NCBI GenBank assembly: GCA_965242965.1
Contig: OZ251518.1
Location: 1,472,001 to 1,536,000 of the forward strand
Length of the DNA: 64,000 nt
Reading direction: 5' to 3'
Source of the DNA: Candidatus Poribacteria bacterium
Lineage (GTDB): Bacteria > Poribacteria > WGA-4E > WGA-3G
A model generated the notes under the pieces. It was not told the origin of the DNA. It saw nothing but the letters and a program-made list of their open reading frames with translations, and searched no databases. How positions within the stretch are numbered: the first letter of the stretch is position 1; every line of letters begins with the position of its first letter. Both the position numbers and the translations under genes were made by a program. Positions 2,925 to 63,341 of the stretch are shown here, one piece after another.

Positions 2925-3446
2925 GTAGGAGGGACATCCCTGTCCCGATGGGTTTTTGGGTAGGAGGGACATCCCTGTCCCGATGCAAGCGATGCTTCCG
3001 GTAGGAGAGACCTCCCGGTCTCGATGCAATAGGGCGGCGCGCCTACCGGGGGCGCGGCGGCAGAAAGCCCCCCCCTTCATCGTAGGGCGAGGGCCTGTCC
3101 CTCGCCAGCGTCCGCGCAATCCAACGCATGCGGGGGACAGGCCCCCGCACTACGATAAAAACGGCACTTCACCGTAGGGCGAGGGCCTGTCCCTCGCCAT
3201 GCCTCGCGCTACGGGAAAAACGTCGCTTGTTCTCTTCAGGTCCGTAGGACCTAAAGAGGCATCGGGACGATAGAGATCGCGGGGGACAGGCCCCCGCGCT
3301 ACGAAAAAAAAAACGGTTCTTGAGCCATCGCGGGGGAAACCCGCTCGGATGCGCGTATGGCATCCGAGGGCCCCCGCGCTACGGGTGCATCGAGACCGGG
3401 AGGTCTCTCCTACCGGGAAAAATCGAGACCAGGAGGTCTCTCCTAC
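2925..3446. repeat. REP-like mosaic hairpin array
   Basis: GTAGGAGGGACATCCCTGTCCCGAT, GTAGGAGAGACCTCCCGGTCTCGAT, GTAGGGCGAGGGCCTGTCCCTCGCC and reverse CGCGGGGGACAGGCCCCCGCGCTAC units. Confidence 0.9.
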
Positions 3447-3670
3447 AAGGAATTTAGTTAAGGACATTGTCCACTTTAATCCTGAAATGGCATCCATACT
3501 TGGCGATGCCGCTCAACCTATTAACCGGCGCGCGTTGGAAACGGCGCATGCCAAACCGAATTTAGGAAGTCAAACGTAATGATTCAACAGGTGAATGTCA
3601 ACATGAAGTGCAGGTAGAGGCGGTGCATCTCTGATGCGCGCCTTTGCTAATTCCCAAAAGGAGCGCGATC

Positions 3671-4498
3671 ATGATGTCCGAACATTTTGATATCCCACAC
3701 CTGAGCCCTGCTATTGAGCGGCTCATTTCAAGTTATCCCTTGTTGTCTGCCGAGGAAGAACGTTCCCTCGCGCGCGACGGTTCCGAAGCCGCGCGCGAGG
3801 AGCTCATCCTTTGCAATCTGCGGCTTGTCAAGTCCATCGCCCTCCAATTTTCAGGCTGTGGGCTAGAGCTCGATGACCTCTTCTCGGAAGGAGAGGTGGC
3901 ACTCATCCAAGCCGTTGATAAATTCAATCCCTCCCGTGGCCGACTCGCCACTTATGCCAGCTACCGTATCCGTGGCAGAATCATGGATTACATCGACAAG
4001 CACCGGACGCTCGTCCACGTGCCGAAACCGCTGCGGCAGCAGGTGAACCGGTTTCGCCGCATGCTTGATAGCCTCGGCGGTTCTGTCTCCGATGAAATGA
4101 TGGCATCCGTGTTGGACTGTTCTCTCAAAGAGGTGCAAGAGATTCGTCGCTGCTCGGCGCAGGGCACAGAGAGTCTTGATGCCCCGGTGGGGACAGATGC
4201 TGACGAAGAAGACATAACGCTCGCCGAGTGCGTCGGCACCCACGATGCCGACATCGCGGCTGTTGAAGCGCGGCAGGACTTAGACTTCTTCCTCGCGCGC
4301 CTTAAACCCGAGGAAGCCGAGGTGATTCGGCTTCAGTGGGGCATCGGTGGCGCCCCTCCAATGAGCGTTCGCGAGATTGCAGCAGTCGTTGGCTACGGCA
4401 AATCCTGGGTCTCGGAGACCTCGTCTGCCGCAATGAAGAAACTGAAGCAGCTCGCGAGGGAAATGAGGGAACAGGAGGATGATCCAGGTTCTCATTGA
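3671..4498 (+). CDS. RNA polymerase sigma-70 family factor (alternative, group 3-like)
   Basis: Region 2 NLRLVKSIA...DDLFSEG...AVDKFNPSRG...TYA, region 3 SLDAPV, region 4 HTH MSVREIAAVVG; AAGGAG RBS before ATG 3671. Confidence 0.92.
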   Translation: MMSEHFDIPHLSPAIERLISSYPLLSAEEERSLARDGSEAAREELILCNLRLVKSIALQFSGCGLELDDLFSEGEVALIQAVDKFNPSRGRLATYASYRIRGRIMDYIDKHRTLVHVPKPLRQQVNRFRRMLDSLGGSVSDEMMASVLDCSLKEVQEIRRCSAQGTESLDAPVGTDADEEDITLAECVGTHDADIAAVEARQDLDFFLARLKPEEAEVIRLQWGIGGAPPMSVREIAAVVGYGKSWVSETSSAAMKKLKQLAREMREQEDDPGSH

Positions 4499-4570
4499 CA
4501 AGGCGCGTCGATGCGCCTGTCTTTGGCATGCGCACGACGCAAAACATACGGAAGTACGCGTGTCGTAAAA

Positions 4571-4605
4571 AAAGAGTGGACACTTCCAGCTTTTTGGTCG
4601 ACATT
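4571..4605 (+). promoter_or_regulatory. Candidate alternative-sigma promoter TGGACA-N16-CGACAT, copy 2
   Basis: Matches 752-786 in both boxes and in spacing; the first half of the spacer differs. Confidence 0.4.
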
Positions 4606-4617
4606 GGAGGTAGAACT

Positions 4618-5158
4618 GAGGTTGTTTCATAACTCGTTGTTGTCAAAATGGTTTCGTGAGACCTTGAACGATTCCGTTTCCTCGGTAGGAGAGACCTCCT
4701 GGTCTCGATGCAATAGGGCAGCGCGCCTCTCGGGGCAGCGGCGGCAGAAGGTCCCCCTTCATCGTAGGGCGAGGGACAGGCCCTCGCCATGCCTCGCGCT
4801 ACGGGAAAAACGTCTCTTGTTCTCTTCAGGTCCGTAGGACCTTAATGTCTATAGACCCGCGTAGACGCGAAGAATGCTAAGGTCCTTTAGGTCCTTAATA
4901 GACTTTGAGATGCCGCGTGTTTTTTATTAAGGTCCTAAAGGACCTTGCCGTTGTCTGGCACGTTTTTCTATAGATATGGTCCTAAAGGACCTAAAACGCC
5001 ACTCTTGACGACGGAGATCGCGGGGGACAGGCCCCCGCGCTACGATAAAAAAAACGGTTCTTGAGCCATCGCGCGGGACAGGTCCCCGCGTTACGGGAAC
5101 ATCGAGACCGGGAGGTCTCTCCTACGGGGAGGCATCGAGACCGGGAGGTCTCTCCTAC
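4618..5158. repeat. REP-like mosaic array with left cap
   Basis: GAGGTTGTTTCATA cap, then GTAG hairpins and an AGGTCCTAAAGGACCT block. Confidence 0.9.
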
Positions 5159-5187
5159 CCGGAGGGCATTGATAAAGGAGTTTTCCA

Positions 5188-5841
5188 ATGAAAAAACTCA
5201 CCTTCATAGGGATAGGCTGCCTGCTTTTGATAACTCTCGGTGTTCTCTACACCTATCGAGAGACGACAAATTTTGTAGACAGCCTGCCGAAGCCGCCTGC
5301 AGCGGCACCAACTGTTGAGGAAGAAACGCAGCCGGGCCCCACCGAAGAAACACAAGAAAGGGGCTCGGATGACATCGGCAGAAAAGCTGTGTCTCCCGAA
5401 GTATCCGAGAGTGCCGAGGGTGAGGCTGAAATCCAAACGGAAGCAAACCCAGAAGCACCACGCGAGGCCGATTATGATTGGCGAGAGGGCTCGGCACATT
5501 CGCATGAACCTCTGCACCAGCCAAAGCTGTGGCATCAGGTAGAAACTGCCGTAGAACGCCCGGTAAATGTGAGGGACGTTACTGCAGAAGCACTCCGGCA
5601 TCAACTGATTCAAAGGTTTGGAGACATTCCCGAAGTTCACACCTTTGTTGAGATGGGGGAGCGGGTCGAAAACGGTGAGCAGCTTACCCCTGAGGAATCT
5701 ATTGCGTATATTGAGAGTATGCTCCACTTGTTCCCGAGTAAACAGACGGAGCATGCGCTTGAAGAAATCAAGCGAATACTGCGGCTGTATCAAGTGAAAG
5801 GGGCCCCCGGGGGCATCCGTATACAGGAACTCCCGGAGTGA
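5188..5841 (+). CDS. Membrane-anchored hypothetical protein, FGDIPEV family paralog 2
   Basis: AAGGAG RBS; shares NF..LPKPP, YDW and QLIQRFGDIPEVH with 2180-2872. Confidence 0.82.
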   Translation: MKKLTFIGIGCLLLITLGVLYTYRETTNFVDSLPKPPAAAPTVEEETQPGPTEETQERGSDDIGRKAVSPEVSESAEGEAEIQTEANPEAPREADYDWREGSAHSHEPLHQPKLWHQVETAVERPVNVRDVTAEALRHQLIQRFGDIPEVHTFVEMGERVENGEQLTPEESIAYIESMLHLFPSKQTEHALEEIKRILRLYQVKGAPGGIRIQELPE

Positions 5842-5856
5842 CAGGAGGATAAACCG

Positions 5857-6303
5857 ATGCAATTTCAGAACCCGCTCCTGCTAGCCCTGGCGATGCTCGT
5901 CCTGACAGCCTGCCTTTACGGCTGTAGTAGCAGACACGCCAGCGAGACAACGGCGGACACCTTTCCGCTCGGCTGGCAGGAATCCAAGGCACATTTTCGG
6001 GAAACGCGGAACTTCAGTGCTGACAACCCGCTTCCCGGAATGTTCAATCCCGGCGCAAATGATGAGTCATTCATCAAGAAGTTTGGAGACACCCCGCAGG
6101 TGCGGAACTATCTCTCCCTGAGAAAACAGTTTCTGCGGGGTGAATCCCTTAATATTGACGAGGCGATAGCACTCCTGTCCGCCGAATCCATGCTCTCGCC
6201 AACTGAAATTACAGCGAAGCTGCTAAATCAACTCTTGGCGATAAAAAGACAGTTGGATACGGAGGGCACCTCTGACTTTGAATACAGATATGAACGAAAG
6301 TAA
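5857..6303 (+). CDS. Putative lipoprotein, FGDIPEV family paralog 3
   Basis: AGGAGG RBS, lipobox LYGC, IKKFGDTPQVRNY. Confidence 0.8.
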   Translation: MQFQNPLLLALAMLVLTACLYGCSSRHASETTADTFPLGWQESKAHFRETRNFSADNPLPGMFNPGANDESFIKKFGDTPQVRNYLSLRKQFLRGESLNIDEAIALLSAESMLSPTEITAKLLNQLLAIKRQLDTEGTSDFEYRYERK

Positions 6304-6427
6304 GCGTGTTGTGAGTGTCAATGCGTTTGTCTACGGGCTGACGCTCGGCGACTTCGTTCGGTATAAGAGGTAATCCAACCCTCACGTTATCTGAAAGTTT
6401 TTAGCCAAAAAACGGAGAATTAACGTT

Positions 6428-6970
6428 ATGAAATGCCAAAAGGGAATGTTAATCGGGATGCTTGTTTTGACGGTTTGCCTTTACGGGTGCGGTGGTAAAC
6501 ACGTCAGCGAGCCCTCCCCCAACGGAACACCGAGTCAGTTGCAAGTCTCCGACGAATCTTTTGTCCTTTGCAACCCACTAACGGATAGTCCTCACAACCC
6601 CCTGGTCAGGAAGTTTGGGGACATCCCACAGGTGCGCACCTATATGACGCTTCAGCGCAAGTTCTTGACAGGGACATCGCTCACCATTGATGAGGCGATT
6701 GCTCTCACGGCAGCCGACTTGCATTTGTACCCGTCTGAAATGATGGCGAAAAGACTCAAAAGGCTCAAAGAGGTAAAGAATCGACTGGAAACAGGAAGTT
6801 CCTCCGGCTTTGAGTATAGATATAGTGGCGGCACCGTATTCGATCTTCGGACCGGCGACAGCATCGTGGTTTACCATCCAGACGGGAGCAAAACGGTGAA
6901 TGACTTCCGGAACCCTGATGGAAAACCGATAGTGGTTCCTCCACCGAAACGGCCTAGCGAGACACGTTAA
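6428..6970 (+). CDS. Putative lipoprotein, FGDIPEV family paralog 4
   Basis: Lipobox LYGC, VRKFGDIPQVRTY; FEYRY shared with paralog 3. Confidence 0.8.
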   Translation: MKCQKGMLIGMLVLTVCLYGCGGKHVSEPSPNGTPSQLQVSDESFVLCNPLTDSPHNPLVRKFGDIPQVRTYMTLQRKFLTGTSLTIDEAIALTAADLHLYPSEMMAKRLKRLKEVKNRLETGSSSGFEYRYSGGTVFDLRTGDSIVVYHPDGSKTVNDFRNPDGKPIVVPPPKRPSETR

Positions 6971-7020
6971 CGGGGATTCTAAACAACCCGCGCGCTTTTC
7001 AGTGGCACGCTTTCAAAGGG

Positions 7021-7400
7021 AAGTGTTGATAGGCGCGCCGGGTCTTGATGGCTTCCCGGTAGGAGAGACCTCCTGGTCTCGATGCAATAGGGCGGCGCGC
7101 CTACCGGGGGCGCGGCGGCAGAAGGTCTCCCTTCATCGTAGGGCGAGGGCCTGTCCCTCGCCATCGTTCGCGCACTCCAACGATCGCGGGGGACAGGCCC
7201 CCGCGCTACGATAAAAAAACGGTTTTTGAGCCATCGCGGGGGACAGGCCCCCGCGCTACGATAAAAAAAACGGTTTTTGAGCCATCGCGGGGGAAACCCG
7301 CTCGGATGCGCGTGTGGCATCCGAGGGCCCCCGCGCTACGGGAGAATCGAGACCGGGAGGTCTCTCCTACGGGGAGGGCATTGATATATGAAACACTCGC
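7021..7400. repeat. REP-like mosaic array with right cap
   Basis: Close relative of 2999-3446; ends in TATGAAACACTCGC. Confidence 0.9.
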
Positions 7401-7459
7401 AGAGAATCTAGCAGGCCCTAACAAGGAATTCGCAATCATCTATAAGAGGAGAATGAACC

Positions 7460-8562: not shown

Positions 8563-9093
8563 ATCGAGACTGGTGGGAAAACCTGTCCCTCGCCATCGTC
8601 GTGCACGCGCACCCCAACGATCGCGGGGGCCTGTCCCCCGCGCTACGATGAAAAAACGCCTCCTCTTCACGTAGGGCGAGGGCCTGTCCCTCGCCGTGCT
8701 TCGATCTACCGGACATTCGCGGGGGACAGGCCCCCGCGCTACGGTATCCAGAACGGCCGCTCTTACCGTAGGGCGAGGGCCTGTCCCTCGCCATGCAACG
8801 ATCGCGAGGATAGCATCCGAGGGGTGCCCGCGCCACGGGGCCTAAAACGATCGCGGGGGACAGGCCCCCGCGCTACGGTAAAACGGCGGTGTTCATTCGC
8901 AGCGGCGAAACCGCTGTTGAAAAAACGGCTCTTCAGGTCCTTTAGGTCCTGCATGTCTATAGACAAACGTGCCCTTCATCGTTTTCAAGGTCCGCTAGGA
9001 CCTTAATAGGCGGCTAGCCACGCGGTGCAGATGTATATTAAGGTCCTACAGACCTTAAGAGGCTTCGCGACGCAAGGAACTATAGACATTAAG
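8563..9093. repeat. REP-like mosaic array
   Basis: Alternating inverted GTAG hairpins, then an AGGTCC/CTATAGACA block. Confidence 0.88.
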
Positions 9094-10103: not shown

Positions 10104-10760
10104 CGTAGCGCGAGGGCCTGTCCCTCGCATGGTTTCGGTTGGAAAAACGCCATCCGCAGTGCCCGTAGCGCGAGGGCCTGTCCCTCGCGTGTTTTCGGTT
10201 GGAAAAACGCCGTCCGTAGTGACCGTAGCGCGAGGGCCTGTCCCTCGCGTGTTTTCGGTTGAAAAAAAGCCATCCGTAGTGACCGTAGGGCGAGGGCCTG
10301 TCCCTCGCGTGGCTTCGCCGAAAAAACGCTATCCGTAGTGCCCGTAGCGCGAGGGCCTGTCCCTCGCGAACTTTCCATTTCATTGAGGGTGTTTGATATC
10401 TTGATGGCTCCCCGGTAGGAGAGACCTCCCGGTCTCGATGCATCGCGCATGCGAGAGACTATAGTTCGGGAGTGCCTGCTCCCGAACGGGTCAAGATCGC
10501 TTGGCAAACATGCCAGAGCTTCAGACGATCTTGACCTACAGAGGGGGATGCCTCGTCTTACCGTAGGGCGAGGGTCTGTCCCTCGCCATCGTTCGCACAT
10601 CCCAACGCTCGCGGGGGACAGGCCCCCGCGCTACGGTGTCAGCAGCATTTCTCGCACCGATCTCGGAAGAAACCCGCCCGGATGCGCGTGTGGCATCCGA
10701 GGGGCCCCGCGCTACGGGGAAAAAAACAGCCCCTTGTTGAGCGATTTATGAAACACCCAC
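10104..10760. repeat. Five ~60-bp tandem REP units followed by a capped element (10385-10760)
   Basis: CGTAGCGCGAGGGCCTGTCCCTCGC (one copy CGTAGGGC...) at 10104, 10164, 10224, 10284, 10343; caps GAGGGTGTTTGATA and TATGAAACACCCAC. Confidence 0.92.
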
Positions 10761-11925: not shown

Positions 11926-12436
11926 CGTAGGGCTTGGGCCCTCGGATGCCACACGCGCTGGCGAGCGGGTTTCCCTCGCCAGCGTTCATGCACGCGCACT
12001 CCAACGCTCGCGGGGGACAGGCCCCCGCGCTACGATAAAAAACGCCACTCCCTCATCCCGTAGGGCGAGGGACAGGCCCTCGCCAGCGTTTTGCTACCAG
12101 AGCTCCTCACCTCTGTAGGTCAGGAGCGCCTGCTCCTGACCTGTTTGTGATCAGGCGATCACAAACTACAGAGGGGGAAACGCACATCGTGACGATGGAG
12201 ATCGCGGGGGAAACCCGCTCGGATGCGCGTATGGCATCCGAGGGCCCCCGCGCTACGATGAAAAAACGCCCCTCACCGTAGGGCGAGGGCCTGTCCCTCG
12301 CCATCGTTCATGCACGCGCACTCCAACGATCGCGGGGGACAGGCCCCCGCGCTACGATGAAAAAAACGCCACTCCCTCACCGTAGGGCGAGGGCCCTCGC
12401 ATGCCACACGCGCATGCGAGAGGGTTTCCCTCGCCA
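11926..12436. repeat. REP-like mosaic array
   Basis: GTAG hairpins including nested TCGGATGC/TCGCATGC loop variants. Confidence 0.9.
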
Positions 12437-13453: not shown

Positions 13454-13932
13454 GAAGGGGTTTCATAAATTGCTATGCGTTTGGCTGGCAGACCGCCTCA
13501 CCCCTGTAGGTCAGGATCGCCTGATCCTGACCCGTTCGGGAGCGGGCGCTCCCGAACTACAGAAGTGGGCCCGATGCATCCCGGTAGGAGAGACCTCCCG
13601 GTCTCGATGCAATACCCGGTAGGCGAGACCTCCTGGTCTCGATGCGTTTTGTTGGTGTTTTTATCGGGACAAGGATGTCCCTCCTACCTGGCTCGATTTC
13701 TGCCGGTAGGCGAGACCTCCTGGTCTCGATGCTGCAAGGCTCGGGCGCGCCCCACCTATAGTTCAGGAGCGCCTGCTCCTGAACGCTTTGTGCTCAGGCG
13801 ATTGCAAACGACGATGGGCTTCTCAATGTCTTCCCGATACGGACCACGTTGAGACCCGGGCGGCAGAAATCGAGACCGGGAGGTCTCTCCTACGGGGCCA
13901 TCGCGCGCATCGAGACCAGGAGGTCTCTCCTA
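13454..13932. repeat. REP-like mosaic array
   Basis: Degenerate left cap GAAGGGGTTTCATA; many GTAGG(A/C)GAGACCTCC(C/T)GGTCTCGAT units. Confidence 0.9.
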
Positions 13933-14007
13933 CCGGGGAAACGGAATCGTTTCGGGGTATCACGAAACCAGAGCACGGCGGTGAGTGGATTATTGAGTTG
14001 TTCTAAA

Positions 14008-15344: not shown

Positions 15345-15515
15345 GCATCGGGCCCACCACTGTAGTTCGGGAGCACCCGCTCCCGAACAGGTCAGGAGCA
15401 GGCACTCCTGTCCTACAGGGGTGAGGCGGTCTGCCAGCCAAACGCGGTCTACCGAAAACTCGCGAGGGACAGGCCCTCGCGCTACGGAGTATCGGGACAA
15501 GGATGTCCCTCCTAC
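15345..15515. repeat. REP-like array; first ~101 bp are an inverted copy of 13477-13577
   Basis: Direct sequence comparison. Confidence 0.9.
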
Positions 15516-17625: not shown

Positions 17626-18019
17626 TTTGAGCGCGTTTTGCGTCGTGCGAGAACTTCAGACGCGCTCAAACTACAGTAGGTAATGTGAAGGTGTTTCATA
17701 AATCGCTCAACGTCGCGGGGGACAGGCCCCCGCGCTACGGTGAAAAAATGGAGAATTGCCGGCGGACCCGCCCGAGCTCAATGTCCGCCGGGTAGGAGGG
17801 ACATCCTTGTCCCGATAACAACATCGAGACCGGGACGGCAAGCCGACAGGAAAAAATTGAGACCAGGAGGTCTCTCCTACGGTATTGCATCGAGACCGGG
17901 AGGTCTCTCCTACCGGGGTGTGCATCGTTTCGGGTAGGAGGGACATCCTTGTCCCGATAACAACATCGAGACCGGGAGGTCTCTCCTAACGGGGACATCG
18001 CTTGCTATGAAACACCCTG
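17626..18019. repeat. Long-loop GTAG hairpin plus capped REP element (17687-18019)
   Basis: GTTTGAGCGCGT...ACGCGCTCAAACTAC; caps GAAGGTGTTTCATA and TATGAAACACCCTG. Confidence 0.88.
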
Positions 18020-22200: not shown

Positions 22201-22281
22201 GGAGGTTTCATCAACATTCACGGGCTAGGAAACGGCCCACCTCTGTAGTTCGGGAGCACCCGCTCCCGAACGTGTTTCATA

Positions 22282-25772: not shown

Positions 25773-26313
25773 CAGGATTATCAAGATTCGCCAGAGATGA
25801 GCAGGATTTGCAGGATTATCAAGATTCGCCAGAGATGAGCAGGATTTACACGATTTACAAGATTAGCAAGATAAGACTGTAGTTCGGGAGCACCTTCTCC
25901 CGAACTGCACATGGAGAGGAGGACTTCCTGGCCCGTAGCGCGGGGGCCTGTCCCCCGCGATCGTCAACTTACGCGAAAACCGCACGCCGACAAAGGCCGT
26001 TTCCCCGATCGAGGCACGGCGAGGGACAGGCCCTCGCCCTACGGTAAACGGCACGCTTTTCTTAACCGTAGCGCGGGGGCCTGTCCCCCGCGATCACACC
26101 CGTGAAAAAATTTCTTCAGAAACTCTGCAGCGGTTTATCTCTGTAGAGCAAGAGCACCTGCTCTGGATCCGTTTCGGGAGCGGGTGCTCCCGAACTACAG
26201 ATCTGGGGCAGGTCGGGCGATCGCGGGGGACAGGCCCCCGCGCTACGGGCCAGGACGAAAAAACGCGCGGGCGACAACCTAATAGGCCACCGCCCGCGCG
26301 AGATATGAAACAA
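25773..26313. repeat. CAGGATT/CAAGATT micro-repeat tract plus REP array
   Basis: 37-bp direct repeat at 25773 and 25811, then GTAG hairpins; ends in a degenerate cap TATGAAACAATAC. Confidence 0.88.
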
Positions 26314-30984: not shown

Positions 30985-31580
30985 TGAGCAGGATTTTGAG
31001 CAGGATTTACAAGATTAGGCAAGATTAGGAGCAGGATTTACAAGATTTTCAAGATTAGGCAAGATTAGTCCGTAGCGCGGGGGCCTGTCCCCCGCGATCG
31101 TTCACGTGCCCAGAGACCGTAGTTCGGGATCGCCTGATCCCGAACGGACCTTGAGGAGAACCCCTTCCTGGCCCGTAGCGCGGGGGCCTGTCCCCCGCGA
31201 TCACTCGCATAAGAAAACACCTCTTCAGGTCCTTTAGGTCCTGCATGTCTATAGTATCCGCGGATCGAAAAAAGCCCTAAGGTCCTTTAGGTCCTTAATA
31301 TGTAGCACACGCAACGCCGCCGGAAAACATTAAGGTCCTAAAGGACCTTGAGGACGCAGCGGCTTGCGCGTGCTATAGACATTAAGGTCCTAAGGACCTT
31401 GAAGAGACCGTAGTTCGGGATCCCCTGCTCCCGAACGGGTCAAGAGCAGGCACTCTTGCCCTACAGAGGGGATGCGCGCTCGCATGCCCGATGGCACGGC
31501 GAGGGACAGGCCCTCGCGCTACGGTAAAGGGAGACGGCCTCCCCTACCGTAGCGCGGGGGCCTGTCCCCCGCGATCGTTC
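30985..31580. repeat. CAGGATT/CAAGATT micro-repeat tract plus REP array
   Basis: Same architecture and orientation as 25773-26313. Confidence 0.88.
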
Positions 31581-33622: not shown

Positions 33623-34192
33623 GAGGGTGTTTCATAAATCGCTCAACGTCGCGGTGACAGGCCCTTGCTACGGCGAAAAACGCCGCCCCTTTACGTAGGG
33701 CGAGGGCCTGTCCCTCGCCATCGTCCGCGCAATCCAACGATCGCGGGGGACAGGCCCCCGCGCTACGGTAACGGGACGGTTTCTTCACAAAACGGCCCCT
33801 TTCATCGTAGGGCGAGGGCCTGTCCCTCGCCGTGCCCCGGTCTGCGCAGCAACCATCCGGGGTCTCTGGGCTGCGGCCGTTTTCCGCAGCGGTCGAGAGA
33901 TCGCGGGGGACAGGCCCCCGCGCTACGGGTGGAGAACCCCCCTTCACCGTAGGGCGAGGGCCTGTCCCTCGCCATGCACGATCTGAGCATCAAGCATCCG
34001 TGGTACCTGGGCTGCGGGCGTTTTCCGCGGCGGTTGCGAGATCGCGGGGGACAGGCCCCCGCGCTACGGGCGGAGAAAAGCCCCCCTTCACCGTAGGGCG
34101 AGGGCCTGTCCCTCGCCATCGCTCGCGCTACGGGAACATCGAGACCAGGATAGCTCTCCTACCGGGAAGACATCGAGATATGAAACATCCTC
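33623..34192. mobile_element. Capped REP cassette (MITE-like, non-autonomous)
   Basis: TTAAtt-GAGGGTGTTTCATA ... TATGAAACATCCTC-agTTAA enclosing alternating hairpins. Confidence 0.7.
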
Positions 34193-38531: not shown

Positions 38532-38835
38532 AATTTCCTTTTCGTGTTATCATTCATAAAAGTGATACGACATGACATGTTGCGCCAGAGCCATTTGTGT
38601 TCTCCTGCGCGGACAGTTATTGACAACTGTCCTGACAGGGACACGTCTCTAGACCCGGCGTGCATCGAGACCGGGAGGTCTCTCCTACGTCCTGACAGGG
38701 ACCCGTCTATAGGACAGAGAGCCATTTAGGTTTTCCTGCAGGCATCGGCGCGCTGAATCGCTCTGTGTTGAATCTGCGTTTTTTGCAAGAATTGTAACGA
38801 ATTTTCTCTAAAAAGTCAAGAGGACTGAATGGACG

Positions 38836-40047: not shown

Positions 40048-40260
40048 CGTAGCGCGGGGGCCTGTCCCCCGCGATCGTCCCTTTCACCGTAGCGCGGGGG
40101 CCTGTCCCCCGCGATCGTTGCATGGCGAGGGACAGGCCCTCGCCCTACGGTAAGACGTGGCGTTTTTTAACCGTAGCGCGGGGGCCTGTCCCCCGCGAAC
40201 GTTGGAGGATGCGACGGCTTCCCTACAACCGTAGCGCGGGGGCCTGTCCCCCGCGAACGT
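40048..40260. repeat. REP-like array
   Basis: Four CGTAGCGCGGGGGCCTGTCCCCCGCGA units and one inverted unit, between convergent genes. Confidence 0.9.
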
Positions 40261-42802: not shown

Positions 42803-43051
42803 CAGTAGGAGAGACCTCCCGGTTTCGATGCTGCTAGCCCTAACTATACGGTGTGCCTCTCCGAGAGGACAGGCGTGCCTGAGTTTGACCCGTTCGGGTG
42901 CAGGCGCACCCGAACTACAGCGGTGGGCCCGCTGCCTTCCCAGTAGGCGGGACATCCCTGTCCCGATACGAACCACATTGAGACCGGGCGGCAGAAATCG
43001 AGACCAGGAGGTCTCTCCTACGGGGAAGCCATCGAGATATGAAACACCCTC
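42803..43051. repeat. REP-like array with right cap
   Basis: Ends in TATGAAACACCCTCggTTAA. Confidence 0.88.
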
Positions 43052-43763: not shown

Positions 43764-44398
43764 GAGAGTGTTTCATAACTCGTTTTCCCGGTAGGAGAGA
43801 CCTCCCGGTCTCGATGTGAGCGGTGCCCCCGTAGGCACCCTCCCGCTCTCAATATCGTCCGCGCAATCCGACACTCGCGGGGGAAACCCGCTCGGATGCG
43901 CGTGTGGCATCCGAGGGCCCTCGCGCTACGGGAAAAAACGGCACTTCACCGTAGGGCGAGGGCCTGTCCCTCGCCATGCGTTTGGCGGGCAGACCTTCTC
44001 ACCTCTGTAGGTCAGGATCGGGCGATCTTGACCCGTTTGTGATCAGGCGATCACAAACTACAGAGAGGGGAGAACGGAAAAAACGTCTCTTGTTCTCTTC
44101 AGGTCTGTAGGACCTGAATGTCTATAGCACGTGCAGACGCGAAGAATCCTAAGGGCCTTTAGGTCCTTAATGTGTTTTACCGTGCCGCGTGTTTTCTTAT
44201 TAAGGACCTAAAGGACCTTGAAAACGGGCCGACACATGCTGCTATAGACATGTAGGACCTAAAGGACCTAAAACGCCTCGGGACGATAGAGTTCGCGAGG
44301 GACAGGCAACCCCGCCCTACGATAAAAATAATGGCTTCTTTTTATCGAGACCAGGAGGTCTCTCCTACTGGGAAGCCATCGAAATATGAAATACCCTC
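43764..44398. mobile_element. Capped REP cassette
   Basis: GAGAGTGTTTCATA ... TATGAAATACCCTC, with TTAA just outside both ends. Confidence 0.7.
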
Positions 44399-46199: not shown

Positions 46200-46622
46200 A
46201 GTTCGCGGGGGACAGGCCCCCGCGCTACGGTGCGCGGGCCCCTTTGGCCCGTAGGGCGAGGGCCTGTCCCTCGCCATGCTGCGTTCGCGAGGGAGGTACC
46301 TCGCCAAACAACGTTCGCGGGGGACAGGCCCCCGCGCTACGGGACGCGGGCCCCTTTGTATCGTAGGGCGAGGGCCTGTCCCTCGCCATGCTGCGTTCGC
46401 GAGGGAGGTACCTCGCCAAACAACGATCGCGGGGGACAGGCACCCGCGCTACGGTGCGCGGGCCCCTTTGTATCGTAGGGCTTGGGCCCTCGGATGCCAC
46501 ACGCGCATGCGAGCGGGTTCCCCTCGCCATGCAACGATCGCGAGGGAGGTACCTCGCCAAACAACGATCGCGGGGGACAGGCCCCCGCGCTACGGTACGC
46601 GGGCCCCATCTGTCCCTCGCCA
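46200..46622. repeat. BIME-like tandem array, ~123-bp period
   Basis: Three repeats of an inverted hairpin pair plus CGCGAGGGAGGTACCTCGCC spacer hairpin. Confidence 0.92.
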
Positions 46623-48295: not shown

Positions 48296-48673
48296 GAGGG
48301 TGTTTCATAAATCGCTCAACGTCGCGGGGACAGGCCCCCGCGCTACGGTGCGCGGGCCCCTTTGTATCGTAGGGCGAGGGCCTGTCCCTCGCCATGCAAC
48401 GATCGCGGGGGACAGGCCCCCGCGCTACGGTAAAAAACGGCCTCCTTCACCGTAACTGCGGTGAAAAAACGCCGCCCCTTCATCGTAGGGCGAGGGCTTG
48501 TCCCTCGCCATCGTTCGCGCTACGGAAAAACGTCTCTTGTTCTCTTCAGGTCCTAAAAGACCTAAAACGCCACTTCTTGGCGATGGAGCTCGCGGGGGAC
48601 AGGCCCCCGCGCTACGGGAACATCGAAACCCGAGATCTCTCCTACCGAACACATCGAATTATGAAACACTCTC
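48296..48673. mobile_element. Capped REP cassette
   Basis: GAGGGTGTTTCATA ... TATGAAACACTCTC. Confidence 0.7.
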
Positions 48674-51336: not shown

Positions 51337-51925
51337 GCTCGCGAGGGACAGACCCGTTTGTGATCAGGCGATCACAAACTACAGAGGGGAGGTCTCCTAC
51401 ATTCGCGGGGGACAGGCCCCCGCGATGCGGTAGGAGAAAGCCATTCCCTTCACCGTAGGGCGAGGGCCCTCGCATGCCACACGCGCATGCGAGAGGGTTC
51501 CCCTCGCCATGCCAACGATCGCGGGGGCCTGTCCCTCGCGCTGCGGCATCCGAAAGCCGCCTCCTTCACCGTAGGGCGAGGGCCTGTCCCTCGCCATGCA
51601 ACGATCGCGGGGGACAGGCCCCCGCGCTACGGGCAACAAAAACGGTTTTCGTTTACGTAGGGCGAGGGCCTGTCCCTCGCCATGCTGACGCGCTACGATG
51701 AAAAACGGCGCGCGGGCTTTTCATGTCCGTAGGACCTAAGAGCCCATCGTGACAATAGCGATCGCGGGGGACAGGCCCCCGCGCTACGGTGAAAGGGCAA
51801 GCTCTGTAGTTTGTGATCGCCTGATCACAAACGGGGGACAGGCCCCCGCGCTACGGTGCTAGGGGGCATCGAGACCGGGAGGTCTCTCCTACCGGGAGCA
51901 ATTGATACCCGGAGGGCTCTCCTAC
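51337..51925. repeat. REP-like mosaic array
   Basis: Alternating GTAG hairpins between convergent genes. Confidence 0.9.
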
Positions 51926-53963: not shown

Positions 53964-54646
53964 GAGGGTGTTTCATAAATCGATGCGTTCGGTAGGAGAG
54001 ACCTCGGGTCTCGATTCCCTCGTAGGAGAGACCTCCTGGTCTCGATGTTCCCGTAGCGCGGGGGCCTGTCCCCCGCGATCGTTGCATGGCGAGGGACAGG
54101 CCCTCGCCCTACGGTGAGGGGAGCGTTTTTTATCGTAGCGCGGGGGCCTGTCCCCCGCGAGCGTTGGATTGCGCGAGCGATGGCGAGGGAAACCCTCTCG
54201 CCTGCGCGTGCGGCATCCGAGGGCCCAAGCCCTACGTTAAGAGGGGCCGTTCTGGATACCGTAGCGCGGGGGCCTGTCCCCCGCGATTATCGTCCCGATG
54301 TGTGTTTCCGCCTCTGTAGTTTGTGATCGCCTGATCACAAACGGGTCAGGATCAGGCGATCCTGACCTACAGAACTTACAGGGCCTGGTGCACGAACGAT
54401 GGCGAGGGACAGGCCCTCGCCCTACGATGAAGGGGGCGTTATTTTCCCCGTAGCGCGGGGGCCAGACCCCCGCGATCGTTGGATTGCACGAGCAATGGCG
54501 AGGGACAGGCCCTCGCCCTACGATGAAGGGGGATTTTTGCCGCCGCGCCGCCCTATTGCATCGAGACCAGGAGGTCTCTCCTACGGGGAAAATTGAGACC
54601 AGGAGGTTTCTCCTACGGGGAAACCATTGATATACGAAACACCCTC
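53964..54646. mobile_element. Capped REP cassette
   Basis: GAGGGTGTTTCATA ... TACGAAACACCCTC. Confidence 0.7.
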
Positions 54647-57099: not shown

Positions 57100-57852
57100 G
57101 GTAGGAGAAACCGGGCGGTCTCGATGCATCCCCGTAGGAGAGACCTCCTTGTCTCGATTTTTTCCCGTAGCGCGGGGGCCCTCGGATGCCATCCGCGCAT
57201 CCGAGCGGGTTTCCCCCGCGATCTCCATCGTTCCGATGTGTGTTTCCGCATCTGTAGTTTGTGATCGCCTGATCACAAACAGGTCAGGATCAGGCGATCC
57301 TGACCTACAGAGCCTGGCGTGCTCGGACGCTGGCGAGGGACAGGCGTTTTTTATCGTAGCGCGGGGGACAGGCCCCCGCGAGCGTTGGAGTGCGCGGACG
57401 CTGGCGAGGGACAGGCCCTCGCCCTACGTGAAGGGAAGCGTTTTTTACCGTGGCGCGGGGGCCCCTCGGATGCCATCCGCGCATCCGAGCGGGTTTCCCC
57501 CGCGATCTCCATCGTTCCGATGTGTGTTTCCGCATCTGTAGTTTGTGATCGCCTGATCACAAACAGGTCAGGATCAGGCGATCCTGACCTACAGGGAGGG
57601 GGAAGCGGTCTGAAGCGAGACGCATGGCGAGGGACAGGCCCTCGCCCTACGGTGAAGGGGGATGGCATTTTTTCCCGTAGCGCGGGGGCCTGTCCCCCGC
57701 GAGCTCCATCGTCAAGAGGCCCTCTTTAGGTCCTACGGACCTAAGAACCGTTCTGGATACCGTAGCGCGGGGGCCTGTCCCCCGCGATCGTTGGATTCCG
57801 CGGACGATATCAAGACCGGGAGGGCTCTCCTACACAGATTTATGAAACACTT
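57100..57852. repeat. REP-like mosaic array with internal ~140-bp duplication
   Basis: 57175-57311 recurs at 57460-57594; degenerate right cap. Confidence 0.9.
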
Positions 57853-58120: not shown

Positions 58121-58356
58121 AGTAGTTCGGGATCGCCTGATCCCGAACGGTTCAGGATCAGGCGATCCTGAACTACAGGGAGAGGGAAGCGGTCTGACAG
58201 CAAGACGCATGGCGAGGGAAACCCTCTCGGATGCGCGTGTGGCATCCGAGGGCCCTCGCCCTACGTGAAGGGGAAGCGTTTTTTCACCGTAGCGCGAGGG
58301 CCTGTCCCTCGCGACATCCATCTAACCTTAGTCCGTAGGGTTCAATAGGACCCTAC
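58121..58356. repeat. REP-like array
   Basis: GTAGTTCGGGATCGCCTGATCCCGAAC pair and nested hairpin unit. Confidence 0.88.
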
Positions 58357-58384: not shown

Positions 58385-61300
58385 ATGAAAAACTTCAACT
58401 ATTGGACACTAACGATTTTGACATTGACATTCATCGCGCTCGGGGTTGGAAATGTGCAGGCGCAACAGAACCTCGCACAGCAGGCGAATGCTATCGTTGA
58501 GCAGAGCTGCGAGACTTGCCACGGCGAAAACCGCGCCTTCTCTGAGATCCTTTCGATTCAGCACCCCGCGTTGATTGCCTCCGGAGCAGTTGTTCCAGGA
58601 AATCCCGACGCATCCGAATTCTATCTCCGACTGCTGCCCAATCAGCCCAATAGAATGCCATTGGGACTCGACCCGCTCACGCCAACGGAGATTGATACCG
58701 TGCGACGCTGGATTGCGGCCGGAGCACCCAGTTGGGAAGTTGCACTCACACAACGCGACTTCATCACCCCCGATGCGATGCTTACCGCGATTCAGCGACA
58801 TGTGAATCAACTCAAGGCGTTTGACCGGCCCTTCGCGCGCTATTTCACCATGACGCATCTTTACAATGCCGGTGAGACAGAAGAGGCACTGGATGCCTAT
58901 CGCCGCGCGCTTTCCAAACTCATTAACAGTCTCTCCTGGGGACCTGATATTATTAAGCCGCAACCCATTGACGCAGCCCAAACGCTCTTCTACATTGATT
59001 TGCGCCGCTATGAATGGGATGTCCCTGACGCGTGGCCCAATATGGAAGCAGTCTATCCCTACGCCGTTGATTACGGAAACTCAGCAACGTATACCACGCT
59101 GCAGCAGGAAACGGAATCCGAGGTGCCGTTCATCGACGTGGATTGGTTCCTGGCGACTGCCTCCTTGCCGCCCCTCTACAACGACATCCTCGGTTTGCCC
59201 GAGACAGACCGGGAGTTGGAAGACCGGTTGGAAGTGGACGTGGCACGCAACATTGAAACCTCACCGGGTGTGCGCGTCTGGCGCGCCGGGTTCAATGAAT
59301 CCCGCGTCTCCGAGAATAACCGAGTCGTTGAACGGCACCGCTCACGATACGGCGCGTATTGGAAATCCTACGACTTTGCCGGGAACGTCGGCAGTCAAAA
59401 TGTCTTTACGCACCCTCTCTCTTTCACGCACGATGGCGGCGAGATTATCTTCAATCTGCCCAACGGTTTGCAAGCATACTTCCTCGTCACGGCGGCGGGA
59501 ACACGGCTAGACGATGCGCCGGTGGACATCGTCTCAAATCCCGCGGCACGCGATCCGGTGGTTCACAATGGGCTCTCCTGTATCGGATGCCACACGGAAG
59601 GAATGAAAGAGTTTAAGGACGGTGTGCGGGCAGTAGTCACCGCGCAAACGAATCATGCCTACGACAAAGACCAGGCATTGCGGCTCTATGTCGAACAAGC
59701 GACGATGGATGCGCTGGTGGCAGAGGATACGCAACGGTTCCGAACGGCATTGGAAGCCGCCGGGGGTATCTTTGGGGGAATTGAGCCAGTGGAACGCTTG
59801 CAACAGCGGTTTGAAGAACCCCTTGATGCGGCGCACGCTGCAGCCGCTGTCGGTTTCAGAACGTCTGCCTTTCAACAAGAAATTCGGAATGGCAAGTTAC
59901 AAACGTTCGGATTGCAGGGGCTGCTGCTGGACAACGGGAGCGTGCAGCGCGATACGTGGACATCGCAATTCAGCAACATAGTTGCCTCGCTGTTCTCCGA
60001 GGATAACATCGTCATTACGCCTGTTGATGATATATCAACACCGCCTGTCTCCGGTGTTCACATTCCAGACTTGCCGCTGCGCACGGCGATTCACCAAACT
60101 CTCGGCAAACCGCAAAATGCGCAACTCACGCGGGAAGACATGCAGCGGTTAACGAATCTGCACGCCGATCGCAAGGGGATTCGCGATTTGACCGGCTTGG
60201 AGTTTGCCACCAATCTTGAACGGTTAGAGCTGCGCCACAACGCGATATCCGACCTGACACCGCTCCGAAACCTCATCAGTTTGGATAACATCAAACTGGA
60301 GGATAATTTGATTGTCGACGTATCCCCACTCGCAAAGTTAATCAACGTGGGATGGTTAGGGTTGGAGGAGAATCGGATAACCGACTTATCCCCGCTCTCC
60401 GGCTTAGTGAAGTTGGATGGGTTAGGGATTAACCACAACCCGGTATCGGATATCTCGCCGCTTTCAGAGATGCTCAGTTTAAGCAACCTGCAAGCGTGGG
60501 TAACCCATATATCCAATCTCTCGCCCTTGGCGAAATTACGGAAACTGCAAACGCTGACAATCAGCGACGTGACTATATCGGATGTCACCCCATTGGCAGG
60601 ATTACCAAATCTGAAATATCTAACCCTTTACCGTTGCGGCATATCGGACATCACGGCTTTCGCTAAATTAACAGGTTTGCGAGAGTTGAGCCTTCAGCAC
60701 AACGACATCACGGACGTGTCCCCACTCGCTGGATTACGCAACTTGGAATATTTGGACCTCCATGACAACGAGATAGTCGACTTTTCTCCGTTGGAAGGGT
60801 TACATGGAGAGACAGAGATGGTTCTCCACGAAAACCCTGGGGTTCAACGACTAGGCTCTCCGAAAATAACGGGGCCGTGGCTATGGATGATTGTCTCAAC
60901 AGGCGAAAGGGGAGGTTCGGGAGCTTCTGCCGCTGGGATAGATTATCTCGCACAAGCCAGTGGCGGCACAGTGACAGAACAGCAGGTGGCTATGGAGGGG
61001 GCGACAGAGGGCGATGCTGTCGGAGATAGGGTCTGGACACCCCGCACCCTTTCTGCAACCGGGTGGAATAACATCAACGTGATTGCAAATGCTATCGGAT
61101 TTGGAAGAGGCGATATAAACAGACACGTTGCATACGGCCTGGTCTCCATTGAGTCGCCGCGAGAGCAGCAGACGCGAGTGTTTGTTGGCAGCGATGACGC
61201 TGTCAAAGTCTGGCTCAACGGCGAGTTGGTGCACGAAGAGCACGTTATTAGAGGCGCAGGCGATTACCAAAGTAATTCTCCCGTTACCCTGAAACAGGGA

Positions 61301-62443
61301 GAAAACCTTTTGTTAGTTGCTGTTTACAATGCGCATGGCGGGTGGAGCGGCTTCTTTGGCTTTGAAGAGGGCACGGACTATTCGGTGCTAACGCCTGGTT
61401 CAAGACTCGCCTATACCCCTTATGCCCCGCGCGTTTCGGTTGGCCAAACTTTCACGCTGCATCTCAGTGCGGAAGAGGTTACCGGTTTGGCAGGGTGGGA
61501 ATTCGATTTGAAATTCGATCCTGCCGCGCTCAGTGCTACGCGAGTTAGCGAAGGCAGTCTCCTGAAAACCGGCGGCACTGCTACTTTCTTCCGGAAAGGC
61601 ACTATTGACAACCAAGCAGGGACCATTACCGGGTTAAGTGGCTCGCGGCAGGCGGCAGGTGGTGTCACAGGTGCCGGCAGGTTGGTGTCGGTGACGTTCC
61701 GGGTGAAAGCAGTCGGTGAGACGCGCGTGCGGGTCCGGAACTTCCAGTTCGGTGATACTACCGGCGCGATTATTCCCACAGCGGCTCCCACTATTACCAT
61801 CAATGTAGGTGGTGCAGTAGCAGCGTACCCGGCTTGGGATGTGAATGAGGATGGCATGACGAACCTGGCAGATCTCGCGCTCGTGTCACAGGCGATGGGC
61901 AAGCCTATTGAGAACCCTCGCACGGATGTGAATGGCGATGGCGTTGTTGATGGCGAAGACTTCGCGCTAGTTGCCGGACACCTCGGTGAGGAAGCGGCGG
62001 CAGCACCATCAAACGTTGCGTTACCTGCAGGGCTGACGCTTGAAACGGTAGAGTGGGCACTGAATATCTTGCATGCAGAAAACACCGGTTCGCCTGCGTT
62101 TCGGCGTGGGATAGCGAAGTTTGAACAACTTCTGGCACTGCTAGTCCCGGATAAGACGCTGCTGCTCGCGAACTATCCGAATCCGTTCAACCCAGAGACG
62201 TGGATACCGTATCAGTTGGCAAAGTCGGCGGATGTGACGGTGTCCATCTATGCATCGGATGGGAAGTTGGTTCGGGAGTTAGACTTCGGGCATCAGTCGG
62301 CGGGAGTTTATCGTATCCGCAGTCGTGCGGCGTATTGGGATGGCAGAAACGCGGTGGGTGAGTCTGTAGCGAGTGGGGTGTATTTCTACACGTTCACCGC
62401 TGGCGATTTTACTGCGACGCGGAAAATGCTCATCCTGAAGTAG
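58385..62443 (+). CDS. Secreted cytochrome c + LRR + cohesin + dockerin + FlgD-Ig/T9SS-like protein
   Basis: CETCH and CIGCH heme motifs, planctomycete-type cytochrome c N-terminus, LRRs, GWEFDLKFDP cohesin, DVNEDG/DVNGDG, TRKMLILK. Confidence 0.92.
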   Translation: MKNFNYWTLTILTLTFIALGVGNVQAQQNLAQQANAIVEQSCETCHGENRAFSEILSIQHPALIASGAVVPGNPDASEFYLRLLPNQPNRMPLGLDPLTPTEIDTVRRWIAAGAPSWEVALTQRDFITPDAMLTAIQRHVNQLKAFDRPFARYFTMTHLYNAGETEEALDAYRRALSKLINSLSWGPDIIKPQPIDAAQTLFYIDLRRYEWDVPDAWPNMEAVYPYAVDYGNSATYTTLQQETESEVPFIDVDWFLATASLPPLYNDILGLPETDRELEDRLEVDVARNIETSPGVRVWRAGFNESRVSENNRVVERHRSRYGAYWKSYDFAGNVGSQNVFTHPLSFTHDGGEIIFNLPNGLQAYFLVTAAGTRLDDAPVDIVSNPAARDPVVHNGLSCIGCHTEGMKEFKDGVRAVVTAQTNHAYDKDQALRLYVEQATMDALVAEDTQRFRTALEAAGGIFGGIEPVERLQQRFEEPLDAAHAAAAVGFRTSAFQQEIRNGKLQTFGLQGLLLDNGSVQRDTWTSQFSNIVASLFSEDNIVITPVDDISTPPVSGVHIPDLPLRTAIHQTLGKPQNAQLTREDMQRLTNLHADRKGIRDLTGLEFATNLERLELRHNAISDLTPLRNLISLDNIKLEDNLIVDVSPLAKLINVGWLGLEENRITDLSPLSGLVKLDGLGINHNPVSDISPLSEMLSLSNLQAWVTHISNLSPLAKLRKLQTLTISDVTISDVTPLAGLPNLKYLTLYRCGISDITAFAKLTGLRELSLQHNDITDVSPLAGLRNLEYLDLHDNEIVDFSPLEGLHGETEMVLHENPGVQRLGSPKITGPWLWMIVSTGERGGSGASAAGIDYLAQASGGTVTEQQVAMEGATEGDAVGDRVWTPRTLSATGWNNINVIANAIGFGRGDINRHVAYGLVSIESPREQQTRVFVGSDDAVKVWLNGELVHEEHVIRGAGDYQSNSPVTLKQGENLLLVAVYNAHGGWSGFFGFEEGTDYSVLTPGSRLAYTPYAPRVSVGQTFTLHLSAEEVTGLAGWEFDLKFDPAALSATRVSEGSLLKTGGTATFFRKGTIDNQAGTITGLSGSRQAAGGVTGAGRLVSVTFRVKAVGETRVRVRNFQFGDTTGAIIPTAAPTITINVGGAVAAYPAWDVNEDGMTNLADLALVSQAMGKPIENPRTDVNGDGVVDGEDFALVAGHLGEEAAAAPSNVALPAGLTLETVEWALNILHAENTGSPAFRRGIAKFEQLLALLVPDKTLLLANYPNPFNPETWIPYQLAKSADVTVSIYASDGKLVRELDFGHQSAGVYRIRSRAAYWDGRNAVGESVASGVYFYTFTAGDFTATRKMLILK

Positions 62444-62453
62444 ATGGCTTTCG

Positions 62454-63341
62454 GGTAGGAGAGACTTCCTGGTCTCGATGCAATATCCCGGTAGGAGAGA
62501 CCTCCTGGTCTCGATGCAATGTCGTATCGGGACAAGGATGTCCCGCCTACCCCGAACCTCCCGGTCTTGATTTCTACCGGTAGGAGAGACCTCCCTGTCT
62601 CGATTTTTCGTATCGGGACAAGGATGTCCCGCCTACCGGCAGGCATTGGGGCCACCTCTGTAGTTCGGGAGCGCCTGCTCCCGAACGGGTCAGGATCAGG
62701 CGATCCTGACCTACAGGGCCTGGTGCGCGAGCAATGGCGAGGGAAACCCTCTCGCATGCGCGTGTGGCATGCGAGGGCCCAAGCCCTCCGGTGAGGGGGT
62801 GGTGTTTTTTTCACCGTAGCGCGGGGGCCTGTCCCCCGCGATCGTTGGATTGCGCGAGCGATGGCGAGGGGGGCGTTTTTATCGTAGCGCGGGGGCCTGT
62901 CCCCCGCGAGCACCATCGTCAAGAGGCCATCTTAGGTCCTTTAGGACCTACATGTCTATAGAAAAACGTGTCGCTACGTTGTCAAGGTCCTTTAGGTCCT
63001 TAATAAAAACACGCGGCCCTGGCAAAACCTATTAAGGACCTAAAGGACCTTAGGGTTCTTCGCGGGCGCGCGGGCTATAGACATTCAGGTCTTACAGACC
63101 TGAAGAGAATAAGAGACGTTTTTTCCGTAGCGCGGACGCTGGCGAGGGACAGGCCCTCGCCCTCCGGTGCGGGGGGGGATTTTTATCGTAGCGCGGGGGC
63201 CTGTCCCCCGCGGTCGTTGGGATGCGCGGACGATGGCGAGGGGAACCCTCTCGCATGCGCGTGTGGCATGCGAGGGCCCAAGCCCTACGGTGAAGAGGGC
63301 TCTCCTAAGGTATTGCATCGAGACCAGGAGGTCTCTCCTAC
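62454..63341. repeat. Largest REP-like mosaic array; contains all hairpin families
   Basis: All unit types present, between convergent genes. Confidence 0.92.

Follow-up and report, generated by a model that had tools for sequence, protein, structure and literature searches.

The intergenic regions of a 64-kb stretch of the chromosome of a Candidatus Poribacteria bacterium (positions 1472001-1536000 of contig C1 in assembly G000; this whole stretch is called the window) contain arrays of short hairpins headed by the tetranucleotide GTAG. These arrays almost certainly belong to the repetitive extragenic palindromes (REPs), the elements served by REP-associated tyrosine transposases (RAYTs), and fall into three GTAG families (A, B and C) accompanied by a fourth, ATAG-headed family (D). 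With mismatches allowed, 173 units in 25 arrays were counted, the first unit starting at position 2925 and the last ending at 63341, in agreement with the about 24 intergenic arrays of a preliminary description made from the sequence alone. Three of the 25 arrays are single units, and one of these, a B-like unit with three mismatches at 36781-36802, lies inside an open reading frame (ORF) and may be due to chance. The share of one sixth of the DNA given earlier holds for the window (15.0% by array span, 14.6% by 16-mers occurring at least ten times, 18% by merged blocks). The chromosome is lower (9.1% by array span, 10.7% by merged 16-mer blocks), and the window is above its average.

A perfect stem of at least 6 bp follows GTAG at 142 of the 427 sites on both strands of the window, whereas nine control heads gave 0-20 perfect hairpins each (e.g. 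20 of 892 for GATG and 0 of 455 for GTGG). All stems and loops named in the preliminary description are present, and its scheme of head, stem and loop stands. It had missed family D, a long-loop variant of A and the shells of a MITE (miniature inverted-repeat transposable element) around some arrays. Reversed family patterns had no match in any of the 41 genomes compared, and Rfam had none in the window at the gathering score. As had been stated, the window lacks a RAYT: none of its 42 ORFs scanned against Pfam matched Y1_Tnp, and a six-frame search of the genome found no RAYT inside it.

Assembly G000 measures 5.70 Mb in two contigs, C1 (5.66 Mb) and C2, and is 94.7% complete. It was compared with two congeners, G001 (an assembly in 210 contigs) and G002, within a wider set of 41 genomes, and for the A pattern with 176 genomes of the phylum. 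The pattern of A was derived from G000, and exact-match comparisons made with it lean towards this assembly. Counts relative to genes (coding and non-coding DNA, gap types, units inside genes) use a rough gene model. The cited publications were available in part, and comparisons with them refer to those parts.

Load across the chromosome

Genome-wide, about 9,600 units in 1,915 arrays were counted with mismatches allowed: 4,778 of A, 2,290 of B, 1,727 of C, 606 of D and 232 of long-loop A. Perfect units number 7,892 on C1 and four on C2; every 100-kb bin of C1 is occupied, with counts in the 57-253 range (64 to 253), and the commonest 16-mer of the chromosome has 2,148 copies. Arrays make up about 42% of the non-coding DNA, and 332 of 8,795 A, B and C units lie well inside called genes (182 B, 145 A, 5 C). 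No replichore bias was seen, but GC skew gave no usable origin.

An assembly artefact or a chance pattern is ruled out by the head controls, by the units in two other assemblies and by depth, since depth in array-containing bins exceeds that in gene bins by a factor of up to several hundred in contigs of four sequencing runs from four studies. No listed contig piece spans the entire stretch, and the exact array order is unconfirmed by the four runs.

Two other kinds of repeat were noticed. Long, regularly spaced repeat arrays without GTAG hairpins occur at C1 positions 5474513, 4235099, 4219239 and 2468368; they look like CRISPR arrays. The other, a low-complexity repeat of type GAGCAGGATT that is no GTAG hairpin, occurs at C1 positions 5294454, 3079240 and 1633727 and at L118 of G001.

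Hairpin units, pairing and covariation

Units of A, B and C are 22-26 nt long, and their GTAG head is conserved at 96-99% per position. The cores are about 99% constant and the spacers highly variable, with 605 distinct spacers among 721 A1/A2 pairs. For covariation, the observed Watson-Crick counts were set against those expected from independent columns. In family A (n=4778), 4385 units are paired at 5:25 (2206 expected) and 4595 at 9:21 (2315 expected); in B (n=2290) the counts are 2232 at 8:21 (1548) and 2147 at 12:17 (1492), and in C (n=1727) 1706 at 8:23 (890), 1691 at 9:22 (822) and 1662 at 12:19 (944). The stems of all three families thus covary at their variable pairs. The copies are not independent in these counts, and few stem variants underlie them: perfectly paired variants with at least five copies number 11 in A, 3 in B and 17 in C, and a B variant left unpaired at 10:19 (C.T) reaches 288 copies.

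For the most part the variants are a couple of partner stems in each family, which alternate within inverted pairs and were multiplied by copying. Among 1,259 heads-out inverted pairs a single one has identical stems, with about 396 expected; heads-out neighbours of one family number 951 (AA), 230 (BB) and 667 (CC). Tandem neighbours carry the same stem in 493 of 571 cases in A and 329 of 395 in B. Inverted pairs almost always combine two unlike partner stems, so that either hairpin can fold on its own; a heterodimer preference of REPs, with a suggested link to the avoidance of long perfect hairpins, has been described (PMC3733652). Covariation points to a constraint on the mobile unit and not by itself to host selection on the fold. 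Of the earlier proposal that the fold is under selection, the compensatory changes stand, and selection by the host does not follow from them.

Families are mixed in 1,108 of the 1,915 arrays, with recurring junction lengths (31 or 21 nt for A1-C2, 9 nt for A2-B1, 25-27 nt for A2-D). Together with the inverted heads-out pairs, this supports the earlier assignment to several mingled REP families and to their composite forms, the bacterial interspersed mosaic elements and the REP doublets forming hairpins (REPINs). C dimers have a 3-nt spacer and a predicted three-way junction fold (z -7 to -8). In C, CT stands immediately 5' of GTAG in 782 of 868 exact units, and head position 1 gives GTAG in 1254 units and ATAG in 13. 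Family D reads CT-ATAG in 604 copies, never GTAG, and its head-inward module contains some 114 nt of spacer. It is REP-like by layout, yet outside the GTAG families, and no D-flanked nuclease was found among the fetched RAYT loci.

MITE shells

The 15-bp inverted MITE ends occur 989 times in G000 within two mismatches and form 299 clean pairs, 297 of which have REP units inside. Exact target duplications of 8 bp accompany 62 pairs and of 9 bp 26 pairs. Terminal inverted repeats, target duplication and a related autonomous insertion sequence (IS) are thus all found, as in IS-derived MITEs, whose non-coding nature and parent IS in relatives (PF13612) are also matched here. Unlike the fixed body of such MITEs, the interior consists of REP arrays in 241 distinct layouts among the 299 pairs. 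The full IS with matching ends is present in seven copies in a relative, G022, whereas in G000 nothing but a decayed remnant of the transposase was found. MITE ends were absent from the 12 best-scoring PF13612 loci of relatives; the match was the weaker-scoring G022 element.

A DDE-type MITE carrying arrays as cargo could itself have driven the expansion in place of a RAYT. Nearly all paired shells do contain REP units, and exact ends are almost specific to G000 (396, compared with 3 in G001 and 1 in G002). However, the paired shells hold only 614 of 4778 A units (13%), 349 of 2290 B units (15%) and 448 of 1727 C units (26%), their layouts are mostly distinct, and most arrays have neither ends nor duplications. 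Moreover, the transposase is a remnant, and G001 and G002 hold hundreds of units almost without shells. A MITE as the main driver is therefore disfavoured to the point of being scarcely credible; it is a secondary carrier of a minority of arrays.

The resident RAYT

One intact RAYT, P0001, is encoded in G000 at C1:3147502-3147966, 1.6 Mb from the window. It scores 120.6 bits against profile NF047646 (cut-off 80) and 29.8 bits against the IS200 profile (cut-off 55). Its HUH (H66, H68) and Y126-x-x-x-NP motifs are intact, and the best match of its predicted fold (pLDDT 89) is E. coli TnpA-REP (4ER8, E 9e-9, TM 0.70). The gene sits inside a C array and is flanked by C only, including stem variants unique to that spot; no clustering of C near it was found beyond the flanking array. 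A nuclease acting in trans on the window, as previously suggested, is thus available, but a single system for all families is not supported by a RAYT with C alone at its sides.

No second RAYT or remnant was found in G000 by tblastn with 14 RAYT-like proteins. A 43-sequence hidden Markov model (HMM), run with filters off over six frames including C2, recovered only P0001 and a broken IS200 TnpA (next match E 0.6), the same two places at which PF01797 occurs. The broken TnpA lies beside an intact 408-aa TnpB in an IS200/IS605 element (L001, C1:3123891-3127127) 22 kb from the RAYT. This element was rejected as a driver, since its TnpA has stops and it is a separate TnpB-type IS. Downstream of the RAYT (L064, C1:3143678-3145313) a small gene pair is present as three partial copies in tandem; G002 has it once.

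P0001 shares with E. coli TnpA-REP (PMC3479197) the fold, the HUH and Y-x-x-x-NP motifs and equivalents of W94, Q95, R97 and R104, and CT lies beside C units as at the sites of that enzyme. In contrast, P0001 lacks the C-terminal E161 tail, and the stems here are perfect and short where the E. coli substrate is bulged. P0001 and its orthologs (88% and 84% identical) also have Ala-Gln at the positions of E. coli E100-H101, where most relatives have an acidic residue at 100, and the N-terminal LRKGR motif of the clade is replaced in all three. Because these changes are common to P0001 and both orthologs, they look like a sub-clade trait rather than decay of a single copy. Residue 100 of the E. 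coli enzyme is listed among those contacting GTAG (PMC8266576).

A RAYT cluster 53% identical to P0001 has members named Candidatus Poribacteria, and partial matches to the RAYT DNA occur in records labelled sponge metagenome; a Poribacteria-like symbiont of sponges is the likely host. Collection scans with P0001 and with P0002, a protein of G002 described below, yielded distant proteins only (25-51%), and no RNA record holding RAYT DNA was listed.

RAYTs and loads in congeners and relatives

The search for RAYTs and their flanking families found two further genes in G002. One (L063:2901-3371, minus strand) is flanked by B units and encodes a RAYT of 127.6 bits that is 56% identical to P0001. 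The other encodes P0002, a divergent Y1 protein flanked by A-type units; it scores 57.4 bits against NF047646 (cut-off 80), has HUH and YIENNP motifs, and one source gives its relatives the name RayT. Public data contain four clusters of proteins that are 82-84% identical to P0002, mostly on short contigs, so a gene of the A type is still around in the lineage. An A3 stem beside this gene (G002 L062:3160-3540) has a loop insert of about 50 nt, unlike long-loop A of G000. By motif and length, compared by eye, P0001 is like subclass 2.5 (group 3) of PMC6006769 and P0002 like its subclass 2.4.

A- and B-flanked RAYTs were not found in G000 by tblastn and six-frame HMM search. The site of the B-flanked RAYT of G002 is assembled in G000 and contains only A and C units. 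P0002, for its part, follows the ortholog of the gene preceding P0001 (79.5% DNA identity) and precedes the ortholog of a gene 2 kb downstream of P0001 (78%), and it has no ortholog in G000, where its best match is P0001 at 25%. The shared site of two proteins so different implies replacement or differential loss from a tandem pair.

Genes of the A and B type might instead exist outside the assembly, in a gap, a plasmid or a strain-variable island. G000 is incomplete by its completeness score and C1 ends without overlap; close A-type proteins occur in public data as described; and G001 has every family without a RAYT match. We nevertheless regard this as very unlikely, since the chromosome was assembled as a single contig of 5.66 Mb, completeness in other one-contig relatives is 93-99%, both orthologous RAYT sites are assembled in G000 without A- or B-type genes, and the six-frame search covered C2.

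Exact copies in G000, G001 and G002 number 3581, 542 and 361 for A, 1559, 78 and 283 for B, 1318, 75 and 1 for C, and 606, 84 and 0 for D; A and B are thus 5-10 times commoner in G000 than in G002. Searches of the 38 remaining genomes found neither A nor C, and 1-3 copies of B in three of them. Among the 176 phylum genomes, the A pattern occurs in four, those of the genus plus one other with two copies. RAYTs above the cut-off are present in 22 of the 41 genomes, many flanked by other GTAG stems, and 32 of them carry a GTAG family with a GYKCGGTT stem that spans the order; REP-RAYT systems are therefore widespread in the order. The GYKCGGTT family shows the opposite boom, with its maximum of 792 copies in G001 and 48 in G000. 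The load of G000 stands out among the patterns tested, with the own families of other genomes only partly counted.

In 98 gaps orthologous between G000 and G002, units are present only in G000 in 49, only in G002 in 8 and in both in 17. Among 46 gaps orthologous between G000 and G001, 19 have units only in G000 and 12 in both. The G001 and G002 stretches used (388 kb of about 9.6 Mb) were chosen as repeat-rich, which biases the comparison against a boom in G000. Several arrays are homologous across species (aligned genes 83-86% identical) and have near-master cores, as seen in nine shared cases chosen by eye and aligned.

Age and origin of the families

The mutation load at invariant core sites is 1.23% in A, 1.22% in B and 0.97% in C. 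In samples of 900 units, 52% of C upstream flanks have a distant near-twin, compared with 21% for A and 24% for B; a near-twin has at most one mismatch over 20 upstream bases, and only this side was used because the downstream flank of C is its partner unit. The excess of near-twins suggests that C was copied most recently, which fits the resident enzyme. With the decay of MITE target duplications the load of C rises from 0.5% to 1.1% and that of A and B stays flat, a weak trend from few mutations.

We lean towards a lineage-specific boom driven by several RAYTs, two of which, the A and B types, were recently lost. From known RAYT biochemistry, the enzyme would bind GTAG and stem on single-stranded DNA, nick at a nearby CT and rejoin the ends, so that units are seeded and reshuffled. 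CT is the reported cut site of TnpA-REP (PMC3479197) and matches the CT before C units. Arrays would be lengthened by local tandem duplication, and the MITE shell may once have moved some of them as cargo. In this lineage A, B, C and probably D would each have been amplified by its own nuclease, after which the A- and B-type genes would have been lost, too recently for visible decay, with C still the most recently copied family. A published model has the RAYT lost once its repeats have expanded (PMC3686654; bioRxiv 2021.07.10.451892), and most G002-orthologous gaps with units in one species only are those of G000.

Several points weigh against a boom followed by loss. Two independent recent losses are required, or three with D. 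A and B show almost no extra decay (about 1.2% vs 1.0% for C) and are not decayed in the manner of the RAYT-less populations of bioRxiv 2021.07.10.451892. Exact copies account for 3581 of the 4157 A units within one mismatch in G000 (86%) and for 361 of 536 in G002 (67%), in a comparison whose pattern favours G000; G002, the holder of the A-type gene, thus has the less uniform A. Since near-master cores at orthologous sites are combined with diverse spacers, youth alone cannot explain core conservation. P0002, at 57 bits, is below the RAYT cut-off, the missing end overlap leaves the closure of C1 unproven, and cleavage by P0001, P0002 or the B-type RAYT is a prediction. The near-pristine state of the orphan families A and B is the central puzzle here.

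That A hitchhikes with C was considered and rejected, as the core load of A is alike in arrays with C (1.25%) and in those lacking it (1.20%). For B the load is a little lower in arrays with C (0.94% vs 1.42% without).

The clean orphan cores could also be accounted for if P0001 had broadened its specificity and now maintained A, B and possibly ATAG-headed D besides C. The Ala at the GTAG-contact position and the replaced LRKGR motif would be compatible with this, as would the parallel counts of D and C across genomes and the CT before both heads. The E. coli enzyme has been reported to be cross-active (PMC8266576), and for REPINs 4 nt apart a host switch of the RAYT has been suggested (bioRxiv 2021.07.10.451892). 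We consider such broadening unlikely, since the P0001 gene is surrounded by C alone, C retains G at head position 1, the flanks of A and B look older than those of C, and A is no cleaner beside C, though B is slightly so. In addition, group 3 enzymes read loop bases strictly (PMC8266576), whereas A, B and C differ in both stem and loop. In its strongest form, P0001 with an altered head-reading surface would keep four unrelated families near-pristine after displacing other RAYTs, one of them at its own locus, which appears rather improbable. If true, P0001 would be a broad-range REP nuclease, and REP populations could be inherited between RAYTs across unrelated stems.

Alternatively, the cores may persist at their sites with no RAYT involved, through selection by the host (for RNA hairpins after genes or for binding of nucleoid proteins) or through local duplication and conversion, while the spacers drift. 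The persistence of orthologous near-master arrays and the stems mostly shared by tandem neighbours in A and B would agree with this, and so would a sense bias of the first unit after stop codons (874 sense, 302 antisense) and an occupancy by arrays of 66% in convergent, 57% in divergent and 41% in co-directional gaps. But terminators would not be expected to fill divergent gaps so often, the conserved GTAG head is a RAYT signal, most occupied sites are empty in congeners, and the families are genus-restricted with copy numbers differing at least 10-fold between congeners. Maintenance without a RAYT is thus quite improbable in our view.

Arrays of the window and neighbouring genes

The arrays at 3001, 4685 and 7059 have one module in common, which suggests local duplication.

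Table 1. REP arrays and MITE shells of the window (window coordinates; + and - give unit orientation).
Positions	Feature	Units	Strand	Remarks
2925..3446	array	B2+ B2+ B1+ A1+ A2- A1+ A2- Along- B1- B1-		B units bracket A pairs
4685..5158	array	B1+ A1 D- A2- A2- B1- B1-		MITE left end at 4618
7059..7370	array	B1+ A1+ A2- A2- Along- B1-		module as in 3001-3446; right MITE end with 3 mismatches at 7386
8618..8962	array	A1/A2 pairs, D
10105..10634	array	tandem A3 run, then B1+ C3 A1+ A2-		A3 period ~60
10385..10760	MITE shell	B1 C3 A1 A2		15-bp inverted ends
11927..12435	array	long-loop A variants, A1/A2, C2/C1 dimer
13506..13933	array	C2+/C3- dimer, B units		3-nt spacer; predicted three-way junction fold, z -7.2; MITE left end at 13454
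15362..15515	array	C6+ C2- A3- B2-
17687..18019	MITE shell	A2- B2+ B1- B1- B2+ B1-
22245..22270	lone unit	C	+
25879..26246	array	C3 A2+ A1- A2+ C6- A2-
31072..31573	array	A, C, D-/D+ module		D heads at 31227-31254 and 31373-31399
33623..34192	MITE shell	alternating A1+/A2- pairs
38667..38688	lone unit	B1	-
40049..40255	array	A only
42805..43021	array	B/C		right MITE end at 43037
43764..44398	MITE shell	B1 Along A1 C2 C1 D D B1		all families
46204..46593	array	A only		alternating
48296..48673	MITE shell	A1/A2 pairs
51357..51925	array	A/B/C mixed
53964..54646	MITE shell	A/B/C array		12 units
57134..57833	array	two C1+/C2- dimers, A pairs
58122..58313	array	C dimer, long-loop A, A3
62455..63341	array	A, B, C, D module		longest array of the window

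A cluster of lineage-specific ORFs without Pfam matches (1256-8530) surrounds a sigma-70 gene (3644-4498); several of these ORFs have hydrophobic N-termini and a common 'FGD.P.V' segment. Two methyltransferases are encoded, one of the D12 class of adenine methyltransferases (15517-16350), the other an N6/N4 methyltransferase fused to an Mrr-like nuclease (46629-48269). The B-like unit inside an ORF mentioned above lies in a gene (34191-38531) whose 1,446-aa product joins fatty-acyl reductase, AMP-binding, carrier and acyltransferase domains. Two leucine-rich repeat proteins (54683-57088 and 58385-62443) have dockerin and FlgD-type C-termini, to which the second adds cohesin.

Comparison with known systems and significance

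The element class is known; its scale and orphan state here are unusual. The GTAG-tagged REP superfamily (Di Nocera 2013, PMC3733652) likewise has a GTAG head, stems of 6-9 bp with complementary changes between sub-families, head-outward dimers with a preference for heterodimers, tandem clusters and several families per genome. Its hybrid dimers in S. maltophilia resemble the family mixing described here, and family B has the GTAG-1/2 layout with an unpaired dinucleotide after GTAG and a 3-nt tail. Poribacteria are not among the phyla listed in the available part of that work, and over half of the arrays here mix families. Some of its families reach thousands, compared with the total of about 9,600 units in G000. 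A literature search found no publication on Poribacteria REPs, most subscription papers being beyond its reach.

In Pseudomonas and Stenotrophomonas (Nunvar 2013, PMC3686654), several REP classes are each tied to a RAYT, and classes left without one as well as strain-specific booms occur. The largest class there has 1,417 copies (strain row about 2,300), compared with the exact counts of A, B and C in G000 given above. The orthoswitch of that study concerns one ortholog, in contrast to the replacement or differential loss at the common locus here. Bertels & Rainey (bioRxiv 2021.07.10.451892) describe doublets, single-copy RAYTs and a boom followed by RAYT elimination and, in clade I of P. chlororaphis, an abundant orphan family left unexplained. 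Their populations comprise hundreds of copies and the switch concerns 4 nt, whereas the orphans here run to thousands of copies and have stems and loops unlike those of C.

The available parts of PMC8266576 and bioRxiv 2021.07.10.451892 leave open by what route REPs spread and are kept, and whether one RAYT can adopt the repeats of another. The genus, which has three RAYTs and four families of hairpins and whose members vary in enzyme and at least 10-fold in load, is a compact natural test of both. The load, about three times that of the fullest row in the Pseudomonas table of PMC3686654, also bears on how much DNA of this kind a gene-dense genome tolerates.

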